IMG/VR virus record: IMGVR_UViG_2778261180_000007
Direction: 5' to 3' (one strand)
DNA length: 15,825 bases
Source: a virus
Taxonomy: Duplodnaviria > Heunggongvirae > Uroviricota > Caudoviricetes
A program made the translations under genes and the position numbers. Shown in pieces: positions 1,245 through 15,825 of the stretch. How positions within the stretch are numbered: the stretch's first letter is position 1; each line of letters begins with the position of its first letter. The notes under the pieces were generated by a model, which worked only from the letters and a program-made list of their open reading frames with translations, was not told the DNA's origin and did no database searches.

Positions 1245-2444
1245 GTGGCAAGAACGACACGCCCCCTGACCAACACAGAAGTTCTGCGCGCTAAAGCGTT
1301 AGAAAAGGATCTAACGTTGCATGATGGCGATGGTCTTTTTCTGCTCGTTAAAACGAACGGTAAGAAGTTATGGCGTTTCCGTTATCAACGTCCAACAACA
1401 AAGCAGCGAACAATGATGGGGCTAGGTGCATTTCCCGCCCTCTCACTTGCTGACGCCCGGCGGTTAAGAGCGGATTACCTTTCCTTGCTAGCCAACGGAA
1501 TTGACCCGCAAATTCAAGCTGAGATTGTAGAGGAACAGCAACAAATTGCACTGGACAGTATTTTTTCAACAGTCGCCGCTAACTGGTTCCAGCTTAAAAG
1601 CAAAAGCGTTACCCCTGATTACGCGAAAGACATTTGGCGTTCACTAGAAAAAGATGTATTCCCTGCCATCGGTGAGATTCCAGTTCAGCAAATCAAAGCC
1701 CGAATGCTTGTTGAAGCCCTAGAGCCAATCAAAGCACGTGGGGCGCTAGAGACGGTACGTCGTCTGGTGCAGCGCATTAATGAGATAATGATTTATGCCG
1801 TAAACACAGGTCTGATTGATGCCAATCCAGCATCAGGTATTGGGATGGCCTTTGAGAAACCTAAAAAGCAAAACATGCTTACTCTCCGGCCAGAAGAATT
1901 ACCGAAGCTGATGCGTTCTTTAATTATGTCTAATCTATCCGTTCCGACACGTTGTCTTATTGAGTGGCAACTACTGACCCTTGTGCGCCCTTCTGAAGCC
2001 TCCGGTACAAGGTGGGCAGAGATCGATCTCGCAGCAAAGGTCTGGACGATTCCACCCGAACGGATGAAGGCCAAGCGTGAGCACATTGTTCCTCTATCTT
2101 CTCAGGCATTAGAAATTCTGGAAGTAATGAAACCAATCAGTGCTCATCGTGAACATGTTTTTCCCAGTAGAAATGACCCGAAACAGTCAATGAATAGCCA
2201 AACTGCTAATGCAGCACTCAAACGCATTGGTTATGGTGGGAAATTAGTTGCTCATGGGTTACGATCCATCGCAAGTACTGCACTCAATGAAGCCGGATTT
2301 AATCCTGATGTAATTGAAGCAGCTCTAGCACATAGTGATAAAAATGAAGTACGAAGAGCTTATAACCGCTCAACGTACCTTAATAAAAGAATAGAACTTA
2401 TGGCATGGTGGGGAAGGTTTGTTTATAAAACAAACCTTTTATAA
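1245..2444 (+). CDS. int: P4-family tyrosine integrase (site-specific recombinase)
   Basis: 399-aa ORF with a GTG start preceded by AAGGA. N-terminal arm-binding-like region (LHDGDGLFLLVKTNGKKLWRFRYQRP) and C-terminal catalytic signature (AHGLRS ... AHSDKNEVRRAYNRSTY) typical of P4-like integrases. Position directly 3' of a tmRNA gene. Confidence 0.9.
   Translation: MARTTRPLTNTEVLRAKALEKDLTLHDGDGLFLLVKTNGKKLWRFRYQRPTTKQRTMMGLGAFPALSLADARRLRADYLSLLANGIDPQIQAEIVEEQQQIALDSIFSTVAANWFQLKSKSVTPDYAKDIWRSLEKDVFPAIGEIPVQQIKARMLVEALEPIKARGALETVRRLVQRINEIMIYAVNTGLIDANPASGIGMAFEKPKKQNMLTLRPEELPKLMRSLIMSNLSVPTRCLIEWQLLTLVRPSEASGTRWAEIDLAAKVWTIPPERMKAKREHIVPLSSQALEILEVMKPISAHREHVFPSRNDPKQSMNSQTANAALKRIGYGGKLVAHGLRSIASTALNEAGFNPDVIEAALAHSDKNEVRRAYNRSTYLNKRIELMAWWGRFVYKTNLL
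2414..2444 (+). terminator. possible terminator hairpin inside the 3' end of int
   Basis: AAGGTTTG (2414-2421) pairs with CAAACCTT (2431-2438) and is followed by TTTTATAA. The int stop (2442-2444) directly abuts the stop of the convergent ATPase gene (2445-2447). Confidence 0.3.
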
Positions 2445-4142
2445 CTATACTTTAAAGAACTTATTTGTCGAAGATAACTCAAGGATCGAGTTACTCATCA
2501 TCATTTTCATGTCCGCATCTTCTGAAAACTTATCACTTAATATTGACACAATATATTGACCATTTATATTATTTGCTTCAAAAAATATATCTCTAATTTG
2601 ATTCACATCGACATCTTCAATGCTATCATGAATAACAAAAGTAGGTCTCTTTAATTTAATCTTATCCACAAACTTAATATAAGCCAAATCAAATGCAGTT
2701 ATTTCACCTTTCTTCTTGCCGCCATTACTGTTTGGTGTAACGCATGATATATCAAAATTACACTTACCTTTATCAACATCAAAGGAAAGATCAAAAATGT
2801 ATCTTTCCCCATATATTTCCTTTGTAAGATCACCAAAAAACTCATTGAAAATCTCGATGTTTTTTTCCAGACCTTGAACTGCTAACTCTATTTCTAAAAG
2901 TAATTTCTCTCGACTATCTTCAAGAGATTTTATAAGGGCATTTGTATCATTAATACGCGAAAGATTAGACTCTATGCTAGCAAGATTTTCACGTAATTCA
3001 GTAAGCTTATTAAATAATTGATTTATAGACTTTAATGTTTCAGGTTCTTTGATTGTTCTAAATAGGGATGATTCTTGTTCATGAAGATCATTGATTTTTT
3101 TATTTACAGTTTCTATTTCTTCTTTTTTCTTTAACAATTCAGATTCTAAAAAACTGATTTTATTCTTAATAATATCATTATGGAACAATACCATTTCTTC
3201 GTAAGTCCTTTTAAGTTCCCCATTAAAATAAATCCCCGCAGAATTATATATTTCCATTAAATCATTTTCTACAAGTTGTGTGATATTATTCTTCAAGGAC
3301 AAGATCGATTCTTCGATATTTCTTACTCGCATATTTAAGGAGGCATAGCTCAAAGAATAATCACTGATATTCTTCTGTATTTCTGAAAGCTTTTTTAAGC
3401 TTTCATCATGACTATCTTTAAAATCGAAGTTCTTAATATTTCTTTCCGCCTCTGCAATTTCTTTCTTCAGAGGCTTAATCATTTTTGCTAAAACAGTCTC
3501 TCTATTTGGATTCCTGTATGCGGCAAGATATGTCTTTTGTTTTTTTATCTCTTTGTTAAAATCACCTTTTTTCTTTATCAGAGGTAACCCATTGAACCCA
3601 AATAAAAACAAGTATAATAGATCATAGACATCAGGAGTCGTATTCCCATGTAAGAAATTAAGCGTTTTCTGCATTTTATCATTCGTGTTTCTAATAAATT
3701 TATGCGAAACATTCCTCAGTGATGGCTTATCTGTAGTTAACCCAAACACTGCTTGAGCTATAAATTCAGAATATTGTTTCTTATCTACTTCAACATCATT
3801 TAAAAAATATTTTGAATTTTTATCATCAATAGATATTATACGTGAAACAACTGCCTTTTTATTTTCTACCGTATTGAAATCCAATGAAAATTTCAAAACA
3901 TTATTATTAATTAACGATACAATTTCAGGTATATCTTTTCCAAACTCTGCATCATGATAAATATCATGACCTGATGACATAAATAAATAATCTAAAACAC
4001 GCGATAATGTGGATTTACCTACACTATTGCCGCTATCTTTGCCTGATGTTCTTTTATTTACAATTAGATTCAGACCGTCTTTAAACGTCACCTCTCTTAC
4101 AAGAGAGTCATTTTTTAAAATAATAAGTTTATTGAGCCTCAT
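2445..4142 (-). CDS. ABC-type (SMC/RecF-like) ATPase with long central coiled-coil; candidate defence-system ATPase
   Basis: 565-aa ORF. N-terminal strand-plus-P-loop layout (LNLIVNKRTSGKDSGNSVGKSTL, Walker A lysine K43). About 300 aa of heptad-like K/E/L/N-rich sequence. C-terminal signature-like SNGGKKKG followed by Walker-B-like TFVIHDSIEDVD. Start overlaps the upstream gene by 14 nt; GGTGGA lies upstream of the ATG. Confidence 0.75.
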   Translation of the reverse strand: MRLNKLIILKNDSLVREVTFKDGLNLIVNKRTSGKDSGNSVGKSTLSRVLDYLFMSSGHDIYHDAEFGKDIPEIVSLINNNVLKFSLDFNTVENKKAVVSRIISIDDKNSKYFLNDVEVDKKQYSEFIAQAVFGLTTDKPSLRNVSHKFIRNTNDKMQKTLNFLHGNTTPDVYDLLYLFLFGFNGLPLIKKKGDFNKEIKKQKTYLAAYRNPNRETVLAKMIKPLKKEIAEAERNIKNFDFKDSHDESLKKLSEIQKNISDYSLSYASLNMRVRNIEESILSLKNNITQLVENDLMEIYNSAGIYFNGELKRTYEEMVLFHNDIIKNKISFLESELLKKKEEIETVNKKINDLHEQESSLFRTIKEPETLKSINQLFNKLTELRENLASIESNLSRINDTNALIKSLEDSREKLLLEIELAVQGLEKNIEIFNEFFGDLTKEIYGERYIFDLSFDVDKGKCNFDISCVTPNSNGGKKKGEITAFDLAYIKFVDKIKLKRPTFVIHDSIEDVDVNQIRDIFFEANNINGQYIVSILSDKFSEDADMKMMMSNSILELSSTNKFFKV

Positions 4143-4362
4143 ATACTATTCCACCATTTCCATCTAACTCAATTGCGCCGATTATGAAAAGCCAATCTAA
4201 TGAGTAAAGAAAAAGATCAAACGATAACTCGAAGATAGAATTTACTAAATCATACAATCGAGATATTTCAATGACCATTGAATCATTACTTTGAAAGATC
4301 CCAAGCACTACACTTCCAATATATACAGGATTTGCTTTTGGATCCGTATCAATTGTAATCAT
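4129..4362 (-). CDS. hypothetical small protein (77 aa) with hydrophobic C-terminal half; operon member
   Basis: ORF preceded by GGAG with 8-nt spacing. Overlaps both neighbours by 14 nt, indicating coupled translation. Hydrophobic segment FDLFLYSLDWLFIIGAIEL. No family recognised. Confidence 0.5.
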   Translation of the reverse strand: MITIDTDPKANPVYIGSVVLGIFQSNDSMVIEISRLYDLVNSIFELSFDLFLYSLDWLFIIGAIELDGNGGIVYEAQ

Positions 4363-4897
4363 TTGGATTCTCCAGCACTATACATTCGATAATAGCATAG
4401 CTAACAATCATACGAATGCCATAATCAATATCTTCCTGTAAAAACTCTGAATCTAAATTAGAACACGAACTAACTGTTTCTTGAGCAGCTCTAATAACAT
4501 CATCTATAATATTATCCGAGTTTTTCCTTATGAGTTCAATGTTAAATGGTTTCTCATAAAGACCATATAATCCCAATGCAGTATTATAATAACCTCTAAA
4601 CTGTCTTTTCAATTTGACACTACCATTTAAAATTATAGCATCAAGTGTTTTTATGGATTCATCAACTAGCAGAGCATCTTCTTTATAAAGTTCAGCTACC
4701 CATCTGTTTCTTTTAAGATCATTGAATTCTATTTTAACATCAATATTTGATGCTATTCTGTTTAAGTTTTGCTCGCTACCAACTGAATTAGAAATAATTT
4801 CAATTAACTTACCAATAACACTGGCTCTTAACATTCTTGGCTGGTTGTTTATATGCACAGGACCAGTATTATTATTGAAATTAACACCAGAACCCAT
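4349..4897 (-). CDS. hypothetical protein (182 aa); operon member
   Basis: ORF preceded by GGGGG. Starts 3 nt after the stop of the upstream small gene. N-terminus carries an NNNTGPVHINN motif that repeats the C-terminus of the upstream protein. No catalytic motif recognised. Confidence 0.65.
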   Translation of the reverse strand: MGSGVNFNNNTGPVHINNQPRMLRASVIGKLIEIISNSVGSEQNLNRIASNIDVKIEFNDLKRNRWVAELYKEDALLVDESIKTLDAIILNGSVKLKRQFRGYYNTALGLYGLYEKPFNIELIRKNSDNIIDDVIRAAQETVSSCSNLDSEFLQEDIDYGIRMIVSYAIIECIVLENPNDYN

Positions 4898-4899
4898 AA

Positions 4900-5172
4900 T
4901 TACCCCCGATTATCAATATTCACAGGACCATTATTATCTTGAAAATATTGAGAACGCGCTCCTTGATTAATGAAGTTTCTATTAGTTGTAATTTTTACAA
5001 TCTGGGAATTAAGATCATTTATTGTAATGTTAAGTTGTTTTATCTCATTATCTTTCTTGGTTACTTGCATAGTCTGATATATTGCTATACATCCAGAGAT
5101 CACCCCAACAATATATCCAAAGGCACTTACATATTCGTTAGCAAGTAGTGATGCAATCATTTGGAGCTCCAT
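4900..5172 (-). CDS. small membrane-anchored protein (90 aa; 86 aa from the alternative ATG at 5160); first gene of the operon
   Basis: Predicted N-terminal transmembrane helix (IASLLANEYVSAFGYIVGVISGCIAIY) followed by a charged helical stretch. The second in-frame ATG at 5160 has a better-placed GGAG. C-terminus NNGPVNIDNRG. Confidence 0.55.
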   Translation of the reverse strand: MELQMIASLLANEYVSAFGYIVGVISGCIAIYQTMQVTKKDNEIKQLNITINDLNSQIVKITTNRNFINQGARSQYFQDNNGPVNIDNRG

Positions 5173-5429: not shown

Positions 5430-5448
5430 GTGCTTTCCCCGCCTCGCC
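5430..5448 (-). other. cos site: 19-nt cohesive-end sequence GGCGAGGCGGGGAAAGCAC (minus-strand reading)
   Basis: Plus-strand GTGCTTTCCCCGCCTCGCC is the exact reverse complement of the cohesive-end sequence I recall for P2 and P4. It lies between psu and the cargo operon, where cos sits in an integrated P4. Confidence 0.75.
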
Positions 5449-5548
5449 CGCCCGCTTTGCGGGGCGGTTTTAATGCAGTTGCACTGACACGCTCAGACCG
5501 CGCCGGGAATGGCGCGGTCTGCAGAAAATGAGGCAGGGAAACGCATGC

Positions 5549-5612: not shown

Positions 5613-6185
5613 TTACACAGACTGACGTGATGCCAGTTGCGCACTTTTACGCGAAAAAATCATGTTCTGCGCAGGGGTGAATTTTTCACGGCTGTCATCC
5701 ACCGAAGCCGCGTCAGGTCTGAATCCAATGGCCGTTAAAATGTCGCTATCCTGTGCGGAATAATTAATTTTTTCACCCTTCGCAAGCCAGGACAGGAGGG
5801 CTTCACGCAGGGCATCTGTGGCACGCTGTATGGCACAGTTTCGGGCAATGGCCGTCAGCTCACTGTAGCCCATCAGCTCCGGTGCCAGTGCCGCCGCCAG
5901 TGCTGTGCCGTGCTGCTGCATAAAATCATTCAGCCGGTCGCGGATGCTGATGTGCTGAACGGCTTCATGCGAACGAATATAACGACCGGCGGCCTGATTC
6001 ACCTGCCATTTTCTGACTTCGATAATATTGCGTAATTCGTCCAGGCGACTGACGTTTCTGCCTTCTCCTGACAGAAGCCGCAGATATTCCTGTTCGGCCG
6101 CAGCCAGCTCATTTTTGCGTTGCAGCCATGCTGCTTTGTTATTCTGACAGGTGTCAAAGGCCTGCTGTAAGGCTGTGCTTTCCAT
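5613..6185 (-). CDS. psu: Psu (polarity suppression / capsid decoration protein), P4-like
   Basis: 190-aa ORF, the size of P4 Psu, last gene of the sid-delta-psu array next to cos. Sequence MESTALQQAFDTCQNN... recognised as Psu-like. Confidence 0.85.
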   Translation of the reverse strand: MESTALQQAFDTCQNNKAAWLQRKNELAAAEQEYLRLLSGEGRNVSRLDELRNIIEVRKWQVNQAAGRYIRSHEAVQHISIRDRLNDFMQQHGTALAAALAPELMGYSELTAIARNCAIQRATDALREALLSWLAKGEKINYSAQDSDILTAIGFRPDAASVDDSREKFTPAQNMIFSRKSAQLASRQSV

Positions 6186-13103: not shown

Positions 13104-13430
13104 TCAGAACGACCAGTTCACACCAGCTACCCCGTTCCACGGGGATTCCACACCGGCACCATGGCTATACCCCACCCCAAGATGCCCGCTTAACGTACTG
13201 CTGAATGAGGCTTTAATACCTGCCTGGTATATTCCACGTCTGCCCGACAAATCATTGACAAAATTACCGTCACTATTCACTTTCACCCGATTATCATCGA
13301 CAAATTCTTTGCGCACAGCCGCCTTCAGGCAGGGTTCAATTTCCATACCGTTCCCCAGACGCATGTTGTAACTCAGCGTTGCACCCAGTTCACGATATAA
13401 ACTGCGGGTATCGACTGATTTCGATTCCAT
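13104..13430 (-). CDS. autotransporter C-terminal beta-barrel segment (108 aa), in a different frame from the upstream passenger ORF
   Basis: Ends ...GVAGVNWSF with a terminal aromatic residue, typical of outer-membrane beta-barrel C-termini. Separated from the passenger ORF by a stop and a frame change at 13431-13461. Confidence 0.5.
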   Translation of the reverse strand: MESKSVDTRSLYRELGATLSYNMRLGNGMEIEPCLKAAVRKEFVDDNRVKVNSDGNFVNDLSGRRGIYQAGIKASFSSTLSGHLGVGYSHGAGVESPWNGVAGVNWSF

Positions 13431-13458
13431 GCCATTGGATAAATGATATTCAGGGTTA

Positions 13459-15825
13459 TCAGCGGTGAACCCCCGTTAACGATGCATACGGCGTCAGGTT
13501 CCAGTTACCATCGGTAAATCGCATCCCGGTTTCAATGTGACCGCCCAGCCCGTTGCTGCGATAACTGCCGTTGGCGGCTCCACCGCTGCCAACCGTGGAG
13601 TCGCGAGCTTCGGTACCTGCTAATACCAATAAATTACCGCCATTTTCCAGCAACATATTGGTCGCTAAATTGCCGGAAATGGAAAAAGTGCCGTACTGGT
13701 GAGTACCGCTGATTTCAATACCGTTAGCCGTGCTCGTCTGGAGAGCGGCACCGCTGTTCTGGACGATATCTGTCGCTTTGCCATTATCGTTAACTGTCAG
13801 CGTACCGCCTTCATTGATCTTTGTTTTTATTGCCTCTCCGTTAGCTGAAACTGTTTGTATTCCGCCGTCGTTAATCGTTGTCTCATTCGCCACCCCCTCG
13901 ACGATTTGTTCGCCGCCGGTGAGCGTCGTGCCTGTCGCAGTGGCTTTTGTTTTGACGATCTCCCGTCCGCCCGTATTGACCTGTGTTTTGTCAGAAGAGG
14001 TGTCTGACTCCATGGTTAACACGCCGCCATTTGCCAGCAGGATATTGTTCGCCGCACCCTGCTCGATGCTGAACGCGACGCCATCCGCGCGTGTTCCTGT
14101 GACCCGCGTCGCCCTGGTGGTTGCAACCAAAGCGTCCTGGCTACTCTGCTGTATCCCCGTTGCGCTGCCTTTCTCCCGCACATCGAGTGTGCCGCCGTCA
14201 TTAAGCACCGAGTTTTCAGCCAGACCGCCCTCATTAACTACCTGTGAACACCCATTAATAATGGAACCTTCCGCTGTCCCGTTTGCCATAATTTGTTGTA
14301 GGCCAGAGACGATATCGGTATTGATTGCCTTACCATAATTCTGAACGGTTTGCGTGCCACCATTGATGTGTGTTTTCTCTGTTGACCCACCATCAACAAT
14401 TTGTTCACCACTTTCGATATTTGCCTCAGTGGCTAATCCATATACCGTTTGCTTGCCACCTTTGATATTTGCTTTATCAGAAGTGGCACTGGCATATATT
14501 GTTTGGGTGCCAGCACTATTGAGTACAGTGCCAACATCTTTTCCATAAACATCCATTTTGCCGTTGGCATTAATAATCGTATCAACTGCCCGGGAACCAG
14601 TGACGACTGTTAATGAGCCAGCGTTTTCCAGCACTACATTTTTAGCTTCTGAATTCCTGATGTAGAAAGCATCACCATAACTGTTGGTTCCTTCGATAAG
14701 GGTTCCGGAAGTTGTGGAAGCAATTAATGCGCCGCCGGATTGTTGCTCAACATGCTTAGCCTCACCACCGTCCTGAACCTCCAGAACGCCACCATTATTA
14801 AGTCTGGTGGTATCTGTTTTAGCCTCCTTCTGGGCAATCAGCTTACCGCCAGCATCAACGGTAGTATTTTTCGCCGAGGTTTTAGCCACTACCGTCAGTT
14901 CGCCGGTATTTTCCAGCACAACATAATTAGCCTCCCCTCCGGTAATAGTGAAGTGAGAGAGCTTGTTGTATCCTTCAATATCAGTCCCTGCGCCCGTGTT
15001 GGCAACTAAAGCACTGCCCGTCTCCTGGTTAACCCCATGTGCAATACCACCGGTATAGACAATCAGCGAGCCTCCGGCGCTAATATTGCTGCCAGTTGCC
15101 GTACCATCTTTCTCAACAACCTGCCGGCTCCCGGAGGATATAATTGTCGTGTCAGCTTTCCCGCCGCTCTTGATATTTTGCGTTCCGCCGTTGATATTGG
15201 TACCCGTGGCAATACCATGATTATTAATATTCTGTGTACCACCATTGATTATGGTATTGGTCGCGTTTCCGGTAACATCCATTACCCCGCCGTTATCTAT
15301 TCGGGTCGCATCAGCTTTAGCATTCGTTAAAACTGACATTGTTCCTTTATCTTTAATAATCGTCTTGTTTGCCGAACCATATGCGTTTATGTCTAAATGA
15401 CCACCGTTTTCCAGCAACACATTGTCTGCCACGTGATTGTGGATGGAGAATGCACCTTCACTATTCGTACCGCTCACCGTCGTACCGTTAGTGTTTGTTT
15501 TTAAAATTGCACCATCGTGCTGGGTAACATTTGTTGCCGTACCACCACTAACATCAAGCACGCCACCGGAATAAACTTCAATAACATCCGAGGAGCTGGT
15601 GTAATCAACAATTTGCGTACCACCAGAATAGATCTGAGTATTTTTTGCCGTTGACTTATTATTCAGAGACTGAGTTCCACCTTCAATCGTCGTGTCCAGC
15701 GCATGGCTTTCATATACTCTTTGCTCACCGCCATTTTTAATGGTGGTTGTTCCTACTGTGCTCTGTTCAACAGTAACCGGCTCATTTAAACCGTCTGGTC
15801 TGTTTCCTCCGGCTCTACAAAAATA
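13459..15825 (-). CDS. AIDA-I/Ag43-type autotransporter adhesin, passenger region (5'-partial; continues beyond the window end)
   Basis: Reading frame is open from the window edge (15825) down to the stop at 13459-13461. Dozens of G/T/N-rich ~19-aa beta-helix repeats (e.g. INGGTQNI, TIINGGTQ, VLENAGSLTVV). The ORF track's GTG at 15561 is not the true start. Confidence 0.8.
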   Translation of the reverse strand, partial: YFCRAGGNRPDGLNEPVTVEQSTVGTTTIKNGGEQRVYESHALDTTIEGGTQSLNNKSTAKNTQIYSGGTQIVDYTSSSDVIEVYSGGVLDVSGGTATNVTQHDGAILKTNTNGTTVSGTNSEGAFSIHNHVADNVLLENGGHLDINAYGSANKTIIKDKGTMSVLTNAKADATRIDNGGVMDVTGNATNTIINGGTQNINNHGIATGTNINGGTQNIKSGGKADTTIISSGSRQVVEKDGTATGSNISAGGSLIVYTGGIAHGVNQETGSALVANTGAGTDIEGYNKLSHFTITGGEANYVVLENTGELTVVAKTSAKNTTVDAGGKLIAQKEAKTDTTRLNNGGVLEVQDGGEAKHVEQQSGGALIASTTSGTLIEGTNSYGDAFYIRNSEAKNVVLENAGSLTVVTGSRAVDTIINANGKMDVYGKDVGTVLNSAGTQTIYASATSDKANIKGGKQTVYGLATEANIESGEQIVDGGSTEKTHINGGTQTVQNYGKAINTDIVSGLQQIMANGTAEGSIINGCSQVVNEGGLAENSVLNDGGTLDVREKGSATGIQQSSQDALVATTRATRVTGTRADGVAFSIEQGAANNILLANGGVLTMESDTSSDKTQVNTGGREIVKTKATATGTTLTGGEQIVEGVANETTINDGGIQTVSANGEAIKTKINEGGTLTVNDNGKATDIVQNSGAALQTSTANGIEISGTHQYGTFSISGNLATNMLLENGGNLLVLAGTEARDSTVGSGGAANGSYRSNGLGGHIETGMRFTDGNWNLTPYASLTGVHR

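Follow-up and report, generated by a model that had tools for sequence, protein, structure and literature searches.

The window analysed here, a stretch of 15,825 nucleotides from a virus of the Caudoviricetes (IMG/VR record IMGVR_UViG_2778261180_000007), carries at positions 2445-5172 on the minus strand a block of four packed genes, which we read as a horizontally acquired anti-phage cassette of the Lamassu / ATP-binding cassette (ABC)-three component (ABC-3C) superfamily. The assignment of its parts to Lamassu/ABC-3C is highly probable, and the whole proposed chain, including the mechanism set out below, is given slightly better than an even chance. The cassette is a variant rather than a standard member of Lamassu, and is filed as such because the enzymatic N-terminal domain of LmuA is missing and an extra conserved gene, encoding a small membrane protein, is present. 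The four-gene architecture with co-varying termini looks like the new part; the ATPase alone is an ordinary member of the LmuB group, of the DUF2326/YydD lineage, and its annotation is correct but not new. The four genes, which are separated by gaps of 2 nucleotides (nt) or overlap, are the following (lengths in amino acids, aa).

2445..4142, minus strand: LmuB-like SMC/Rad50-type ABC ATPase of the DUF2326/YydD family, 565 aa, ATG start
4129..4362, minus strand: LmuC-equivalent middle component of type MC6, 77 aa, overlapping both neighbours
4349..4897, minus strand: LmuA-like adaptor consisting of the ABC-3C C-terminal domain only, 182 aa, with N-terminal GVNFNNNTGPVHINN and the invariant C-terminus IECIVLENPND
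4900..5172, minus strand: small membrane protein of 90 aa if translated from the first ATG, 86 aa with the RefSeq start (ATG at 5160), the proposed trans-acting effector

An earlier reading of the same letters, the original prediction, had assigned an ATPase to 2445-4142, which holds; the strand has to be corrected to minus, and the plus-strand translation of this interval is full of stop codons. It had also placed the effector function in the small partner proteins, a proposal with which the present data are consistent.

Locus classes and the small membrane protein

Related loci, cited by their L numbers, were gathered with an alignment of the 182-aa protein and a 17-sequence alignment of the ATPase. 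In each of the 20 genome loci, the 182-aa gene is preceded at a distance of 1-4 nt by a gene, broken in one of them, for a small hydrophobic-helix protein (about 83-100 aa), and the hosts include Enterobacterales, Vibrio, Azotobacter, Marinobacterium, Microbulbifer, Crenothrix, Methylophilaceae and others. Among the metagenome loci, 63 of 80 had enough sequence for walking gene by gene upstream from the ATPase, and 58 of these gave classes. In class 1 (34 loci, with an ATPase 31-95% identical to that of the window), a short protein of 182-209 aa with the ABC-3C C-terminal domain (CTD) CTD10 is always preceded by a hydrophobic-helix small protein. In class 2 (23 loci, ATPase 28-31% identical), the CTD10 protein has 268-304 aa and bears an N-terminal HNH domain; there is no small open reading frame (ORF) upstream in 17 of the 23, and the small ORFs of the other six lack a hydrophobic helix. 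The HNH part of class 2 matches PADLOC PDC-M68A (E 6e-35) and endonuclease effector models of the CBASS type. Because HNH fills the same position in this sister class, the effector slot of the cassette has seemingly been exchanged for a short motif plus a membrane protein. One further locus, L063, encodes a 220-aa upstream protein without a CTD10-type C-terminus and has no small ORF.

The small protein of the window starts with a hydrophobic helix, continues with a short coiled coil and ends in the tail SQYFQDNNGPVNIDNRG, and the Kyte-Doolittle maximum over 19 residues lies between 1.58 and 2.93 in all 28 of the 28 small proteins. No family match of the window protein was found in Pfam, PADLOC and related searches, which returned only weak DivIC/FtsL-like hits, and PADLOC v2 holds no model that matches any of the three small cassette proteins. 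In Siccibacter colletis (L007:4727-4998), the small gene is split into ORFs of 50 and 63 aa, the other three genes being intact; this broken gene may be a genuine pseudogene or an artefact of sequencing.

Two side observations concern the same loci. Pfam DUF6556 (PF20193) is matched by 5 of 19 representative small proteins (best E 7e-7), so that Pfam already covers a part of the small-protein family, under a domain whose function is unknown; the matching proteins are probably those of L043-L062 (e.g., that of L043, 79 aa) with the tail type NVYTKNNSGGMKIDM. In the class-1 locus L026, a gene with a SIR2_2 domain (L026:5716-7068) directly follows the ATPase gene; it may be an effector added to the system or just a defence gene that lies next to it.

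Matching termini

A short motif rich in N, Q and G, with alternating hydrophobic residues, occurs both in the tail of the small protein and in the first ~16 residues of the CTD10 protein, and the two copies change together from lineage to lineage, as in the following pairs.

E. coli: small-protein tail SQYFQDNNGPVNIDN; CTD10 N-terminus GVNFNNNTGPVHINN
L064: small-protein tail GKNSQQAMGDITNKKIKN; CTD10 N-terminus GPNSQQAFGDIVNNITNN
L070: small-protein tail GGVTVGKNTGGINFG; CTD10 N-terminus KIRVGKNFGGINYF
L059: small-protein tail SSQYIEKNDGSINIS; CTD10 N-terminus STYVQENKGKVNIY
L026: small-protein tail ISGDINIKN; CTD10 N-terminus IVGDVKIKN

When tails were aligned locally with N-termini, the score averaged 33.3 for pairs from the same locus, against 20.2 for pairs taken across lineages. 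For 12 lineage representatives, the own-pair scores sum to 414, compared with a permutation mean of 249 +/- 25, and none of 100,000 permutations reached 414. Proline is gained or lost in both motifs jointly. The fraction of N, Q, G, S and T is 0.49 and 0.42 in the motifs, versus 0.32 and 0.25 in the rest of the proteins.

A natural in-frame fusion of the transmembrane protein to CTD10 is found at L109:538-1284, on a single short ENA metagenome scaffold of 1398 bp, and derives from a 65-nt deletion between two motif repeats that contain GGTCCTGTG.

At residues shared by both motifs, third-codon identity is 0.57 in a rough test run without a formal null, and a fresh gene conversion is for this reason not obvious; recent conversion was accordingly set aside as the sole source of the likeness, and conversion in individual lineages is possible. 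A programmed -1 frameshift joining the small and the 182-aa ORFs, hinted at by the run CGGGGGTAA at the E. coli junction, was also considered and was rejected because neither the G-run nor the frame offset between the genes is conserved in related loci.

The middle component and the adaptor

The 77-aa protein matches Pfam MC6 above the cut-off (E 4.4e-13; 49.5 bits against 27.2) and is therefore the LmuC equivalent. The position of its gene between the effector-slot gene and the ATPase gene is conserved across the loci, as are the overlaps. Among the comparators listed in the original prediction, ABC-3C was thus the right choice, the middle gene being of the MC6 family and so annotated in RefSeq.

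The 182-aa protein of the window itself scores below the CTD10 cut-off; 43 of 49 family members match CTD10, and the top Foldseek match is YydB (probability 0.98). On these two grounds, the protein is LmuA cut down to its C-terminal docking/oligomerisation domain (CTD10). In the AlphaFold2 (AF2) model, only ~25 low-confidence residues, including the motif region, precede the CTD, and there is no N-terminal enzymatic domain. Nearly all members of the family have exactly 182 aa, with 25 invariant columns, and the C-terminal sequence [IV]-E-C-x-[IV]-L-E-N-P (window 4352-4402, minus strand) is invariant. A shorter form of it, C-x-[IV]-L-E-x-P, is common to both locus classes, with C-K-I-L-E-x-P in the HNH-CTD10 proteins (e.g., L027:2964-3770), and the motif belongs for this reason to the docking domain rather than to the effector; it probably contacts MC6 or the apex of the ATPase.

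The ATPase

The ATPase matches Pfam DUF2326 above the gathering score (E 1.3e-17) and, nearly over its full length, PADLOC PDC-M68B (E 1.2e-45) and LmuB (PDLC03859, E 4.3e-16, residues 1-533). Its family comprises, at 50% clustering, 1138 cluster representatives with E <= 0.001 in a library of 1.84 billion proteins; PDC-M68B is matched by 54 of 54 sampled homologues and a LmuB model by 44 of the 54. The AF2 model, built from 102 homologues with 23-50% identity (the set on which the column counts below are also based), has a mean predicted local distance difference test score (pLDDT) of 93.5 and a predicted template modelling score (pTM) of 0.80. In this model, an N-terminal head lobe is followed by helices running up (186-305) and down (314-444) and by a C-terminal head lobe (445-565). 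The structure prediction and Foldseek comparison that had been proposed as a check thus return an ABC fold: against the PDB, the B. subtilis YydD model ranks first (E 2e-19), the probability is 1.0 to Smc, Rad50, condensin, JetC and LmuB, and the best TM-scores among experimental structures are those of the LmuB chains 9hqx_B/9uxh_F (TMq 0.49-0.52). A phmmer search of the ATPase against the PDB gave no match, and the 102-homologue profile gave just coiled-coil noise and a faint P-loop match to Salmonella LmuB; as modelled, the kinship of the ATPase to the solved Lamassu complexes is visible by fold only.

The motifs quoted in the original prediction were all found in the verified translation at the checked coordinates; they are listed here along with the coiled-coil arm and the H-loop equivalent.

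Residues 23-29, minus strand: head strand GLNLIVN
4035..4055, minus strand: pre-P-loop insert KRTSGKD, 7 residues (30-36), a loop in the AF2 model where pLDDT dips to 83
4008..4034, minus strand: Walker A / P-loop SGNSVGKST (residues 37-45, K43)
2811..3587, minus strand: antiparallel coiled-coil arm in the AF2 model, residues 186-444, ~260 residues
2709..2732, minus strand: degenerate signature NSNGGKKK (residues 471-478), G475 in 98/102 and K477 in 95/102
2616..2639, minus strand: Walker B FVIHD506-S507-I-E509 (residues 502-509), without the catalytic Glu
2538..2558, minus strand: H-loop equivalent QYIVSIL with Leu535 replacing the switch His, Q529 in 101/102

The split SMC/Rad50-like head with its coiled-coil arm had been anticipated correctly, and so had the insertion before the P-loop, which proves to be a trait of the family: it occurs in all members, with variable sequence and a length of 5-8 residues. 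The predicted arm is antiparallel as claimed and is ~260 rather than about 300 residues long. Walker A follows the family pattern [ST]-G-N-x-[VI]-G-K-[TS]-T, with K43 conserved in 102, N39 in 101 and G42 in 100 of the 102 homologues; relative to GxxxxGK[ST], the position of the first Gly is occupied by Ser or Thr and the Gly comes one residue later. No zinc hook was found, CxxC being present in 0 of 102 homologues. The hook-less apex (residues 299-322; window 3177-3248, minus strand) carries Y299 (101/102), F320 and H321 (100/102 each) and nearly invariant A302 and N322, a conservation that makes it a candidate dimerisation or partner-docking site in place of a hook.

The signature is degenerate, as had been supposed, and Walker B indeed has Ser after its Asp and a Glu two residues further on. 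D506 is kept in 100 of 102 homologues and E509 in 97, and position 507 is occupied by S, K, Q, R or G, with Glu in only 2 of the 102. The switch His, which had not been part of the earlier claim, is missing as well: in the segment QYIVSIL, which we take to align as the H-loop with the SMC/Rad50 motif Q-h-I-h-I-T-H, position 535 is Leu in 87 and Ile in 14 of the 102. Since the Asp is retained while Glu 507 is found in 2 of 102 and Leu or Ile 535 in 101, the ATPase is a member of the SMC/Rad50-like ABC fold with a degenerate catalytic set. The lack of a fused effector domain also stands; the residues after the Walker B Asp number 59, not about 40.

Published work on Lamassu offers precedents for these features. 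The Walker B of short Lamassu is given as hhhhD[Q/S/T/E] (Haudiquet et al., 10.1101/2025.04.02.646746), and Salmonella LmuACB with DNA turns over about 1 ATP per minute, and its defence depends on the binding of ATP and on engagement of the heads (Li et al., 10.1101/2025.03.14.643221). The slow or switch-like hydrolysis suggested earlier agrees with this variant Walker B and this rate. Because the motif oddities are family-wide and already described for Lamassu, they are not novel alone, and the observation and its switch-like interpretation are supported without being new for the family.

Other comparators for the ATPase were tried and rejected. Septu PtuA, Gabija GajA and PARIS AriA gave no PADLOC match at E <= 1, and Pfam AAA_21 reached 22.6 bits, which is below its cut-off; a system of the Septu/Gabija/PARIS type is also at variance with the long coiled coil and with the lack of a nuclease or Toprim partner gene in the window. 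An assignment to RecF or RecN was unsupported in family searches.

Proposed mechanism

In the solved Lamassu complexes, LmuA is sequestered as a monomer by LmuB2-LmuC, is released and tetramerises via its CTD, which activates the N-terminal effector (10.1101/2025.03.14.643221; 10.1101/2025.04.02.646746). By analogy, an LmuB dimer and LmuC of the cassette would hold the CTD10 protein as a monomer until it is freed by ATP-driven engagement of the heads, for which K43 would be needed, in combination with DNA ends of the phage or intermediates of replication. Hydrolysis might be slow or dispensable in such a sensor ATPase, since the protein has neither the catalytic Glu nor the switch His. The freed CTD10 protein, again by analogy, would oligomerise and thereby gather its N-terminal beta-motifs, which could latch on to the corresponding tails of the membrane protein through pairing of beta-strands or through templating as in E. 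coli Bab/Agp and fungal HET-S/NWD2. The hydrophobic helices would then cluster, the inner membrane would be damaged and the infection aborted. Capture of the tails by the motif with clustering of helices in the inner membrane, leading to abortive infection, would be the most economical reading of the data in our analysis. That the small membrane protein is the effector in trans seems to us slightly more likely than not. An amyloid-type coupling of the two motifs is a more tentative proposal, which we consider somewhat doubtful, and we hold in the same low regard the fuller version, in which a Lamassu SMC-like sensor would signal by prion- or amyloid-like templating, the N-terminal motif of the effector-less LmuA folding into a template once LmuA is released and oligomerises, and converting the tail of a Bab-like protein so that the cell is permeabilised.

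Alternative explanations

Several observations count against this mechanism or against its novelty. The small proteins show no sequence match to Bell/HeLo/Bab-type entries or to pore formers in Pfam and the PDB. In the literature, no paper names the accessions of the cassette proteins, and no defence, membrane damage or interaction is reported for them. The co-variation of the termini could come from occasional gene conversion or from a common third binding site. The amyloid version in particular is weakened by the conserved Pro in the E. coli-lineage motif, by the motif being a single short repeat and by the weak pairing scores of L069 and of the L043-type group. Finally, the cassette group may be the 'Clade O' of Haudiquet et al., the short-Lamassu clade described there as having 'seemingly lost the effector domain' (10.1101/2025.04.02.646746), in which case part of the finding is possibly catalogued already. 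The accessions of the cassette are not present in the supplements of that study, and its text mentions no membrane partner, the word 'transmembrane' being absent.

The same clade lends some support to a different explanation, that of an effector-less or decaying Lamassu in which HNH was simply lost. The 182-aa protein would then be a leftover or have a regulatory role, and the small gene would be cargo with no link to the system, for instance of a holin-like or superinfection-exclusion kind; the missing family assignment of the small protein and its broken gene in S. colletis point the same way. However, from Enterobacteriaceae to Vibrio, Azotobacter, Crenothrix and Methylophilaceae, all four genes are preserved whole, hardly vary in length (about 83-100, 182, 77 and 565 aa) and are joined by gaps or overlaps of 1-4 nt, the arrangement is kept down to 31% identity of the ATPase, and the 182-aa family retains its 25 invariant columns. 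Co-variation of the tail with the adaptor N-terminus is likewise not expected of unrelated cargo, and we regard decay as unlikely. It is twice as easy to credit, yet still improbable, that the small membrane protein is an anchor, which would tether the sensor complex to the inner membrane via the shared motif (e.g., near sites of phage DNA entry) while the system would act in another way, for instance through a host nuclease that it recruits or by the ATPase clamping DNA. A single N-terminal helix with a short coiled coil suits a tether as well as a pore former, and the proteins behind the weak hits, DivIC and FtsL, are bitopic membrane proteins. On the other hand, the same position of the system is held in the sister class by a bona fide toxic effector, HNH, an effector is present in all Lamassu types of the cited literature, and abortive infection is reported for the systems that were tested.

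That the ATPase is a housekeeping protein of DNA repair or chromosome maintenance (RecF/RecN/SbcC type) with incidental neighbours is very hard to sustain. Its SMC_N/Rad50-like fold and one source name, 'ATPase involved in DNA repair', would fit. However, it occurs in only 28 of 5426 E. coli genomes, within a 29% G+C island on a satellite, it lacks the catalytic Glu and the switch His, and it always co-occurs with the MC6 and CTD10 genes; in the matching RefSeq genome, the true recN is found elsewhere, ~3.5 kb upstream of smpB and beyond the window.

Comparison with known systems

The closest relatives of the cassette are the short Lamassu/ABC-3C systems with HNH-CTD10 (PADLOC candidate PDC-M68), with which it shares the ATPase family (28-31% identity), MC6, CTD10 and the A-C-B gene order with overlapping genes. 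We note two differences from them: the HNH domain of ~90 residues is absent and a motif of ~16 residues stands at the N-terminus instead, and the operon is headed by an additional gene, for a small membrane protein whose tail matches this motif. Among structurally solved Lamassu, Salmonella LmuACB and V. cholerae DdmABC have a Cap4 nuclease effector, and the ATPase shows no profile-level sequence match to the solved LmuB. Whereas the cassette combines CTD10 with MC6, DdmABC has CTD7 and MC3. Compared with the solved Lamassu proteins, the Walker B of the cassette has D-S rather than D-Q, the switch His is replaced by Leu, an insert of 7 residues precedes the P-loop, and no nuclease domain is present.

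B. subtilis YydB-YydC-YydD resembles the cassette in that YydD is the best match of the ATPase and YydB that of the 182-aa protein, where the entry concerned (PDB 9a6c) is an integrative YydD-YydB model and not an experimental structure; one source labels homologues of the ATPase 'YydD (DUF2326 family)'. In contrast to the cassette adaptor, YydB has 481 aa with a large N-terminal domain. To our knowledge, no small membrane partner of YydB-YydC-YydD has been described.

The second half of the architecture recalls amyloid-signalling pairs, i.e., E. coli Bab/Agp (BASS11), bacterial Bell/NLR (BASS1-10) and fungal HET-S/NWD2, in which adjacent genes encode a sensor and a small executioner with an N-terminal helix and a C-terminal N/Q/G-rich motif. 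Also as in these pairs, the same motif is found at the N-terminus on the sensor side, the two copies diverge together, and the genes lie in a defence hotspot of a prophage or satellite. Bab of E. coli (109 aa) begins with a hydrophobic helix and ends in a motif that Agp bears N-terminally (10.1101/2024.11.07.622273). The genetic signature of a matched motif in a small helix protein and an adjacent sensor was used to define the Bell/NLR pairs and was shown by experiment for Bab/Agp. The cassette differs from such pairs in its sensor side, which is a three-protein SMC-like Lamassu module and not an NLR or TPR-PIN protein, and in the conserved Pro of its E. coli-lineage motif; the small protein has no detectable similarity to Bell, Bab or the listed BASS families, the sequence of BASS11 not being among those compared. 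With the heads of Rad50/SbcC and SMC proteins, the ATPase shares the split ABC head, the antiparallel coiled coil, the Walker A Lys, a signature-like GG and the Walker B Asp, whereas its arm is much shorter and it is without a zinc hook or hinge, the catalytic Glu, the switch His and an Mre11/SbcD or kleisin partner.

A literature search found no paper in which matched terminal motifs or a membrane effector are connected with Lamassu; the search did not cover the ABC-3C paper of Krishnan et al. 2020. The cassette would represent a modular immune sensor that swaps a fused HNH for a short docking or templating motif and a separate membrane protein. If this is true, it would explain a Lamassu clade reported as effector-less, would add a membrane-targeting output to Lamassu, and would provide in E. 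coli, with a cassette of 2.9 kb, a tractable case of signalling via matched terminal motifs, possibly of an amyloid-like kind. Should templating be involved, amyloid signalling would reach beyond NLR and TPR proteins to ABC/SMC-type immune sensors in common Gammaproteobacteria. The motif pairs that co-vary across lineages are ready-made material for swaps.

Genomic context

From the RefSeq context and family searches, the window is the smpB-ssrA region of E. coli with an inserted P4-like satellite, and the cassette occupies the cargo slot between integrase and psu. The features that frame it are the following.

698-1060: tmRNA gene (ssrA), the insertion site of the P4-like satellite
1245..2444, plus strand: integrase of the P4-like satellite, which bounds the cargo slot on one side (PHROG integrase, E 3.6e-70; RefSeq context)
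5613..6185, minus strand: psu of the P4-like satellite, the opposite edge of the slot (Pfam Psu, E 8e-89)

Other satellite genes in the window are delta/ogr, a sid-like gene, alpA, ash and the alpha primase. The composition profile shows the four-gene block as an island of 28-34% G+C in surroundings of ~50%, with a climb at psu from about 29% to above 50%. The 28 complete E. coli genomes that carry the cassette have it in identical form, and RefSeq names its products 'DUF2326 domain-containing protein', 'ABC-three component system middle component 6' and two hypothetical proteins. Related cassettes are found in prophage-like, satellite-like or mobilisable elements of Azotobacter, Vibrio and Oceanospirillum and also in 4 IMG/VR contigs; members of the Lamassu family have been reported in immune-system hotspots of prophage genomes (Millman et al. 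preprint).

A promoter scan of the AT-rich cassette DNA gave no usable signal. Where psu gives way to the low-G+C cassette, a hairpin rich in G+C and resembling a terminator, CCGCCCGC...GCGGGGCGG, lies at 5448-5467 and is followed by a T run on the plus strand. At the far end of the P4-like element, 13104-15561 on the minus strand encodes a 700-aa AIDA/Ag43-like autotransporter passenger with 8 AIDA repeats (E 4e-130), and a separate adjoining ORF of 108 aa holds only the end of the autotransporter beta-domain; together, the two look like a split or truncated adhesin gene.

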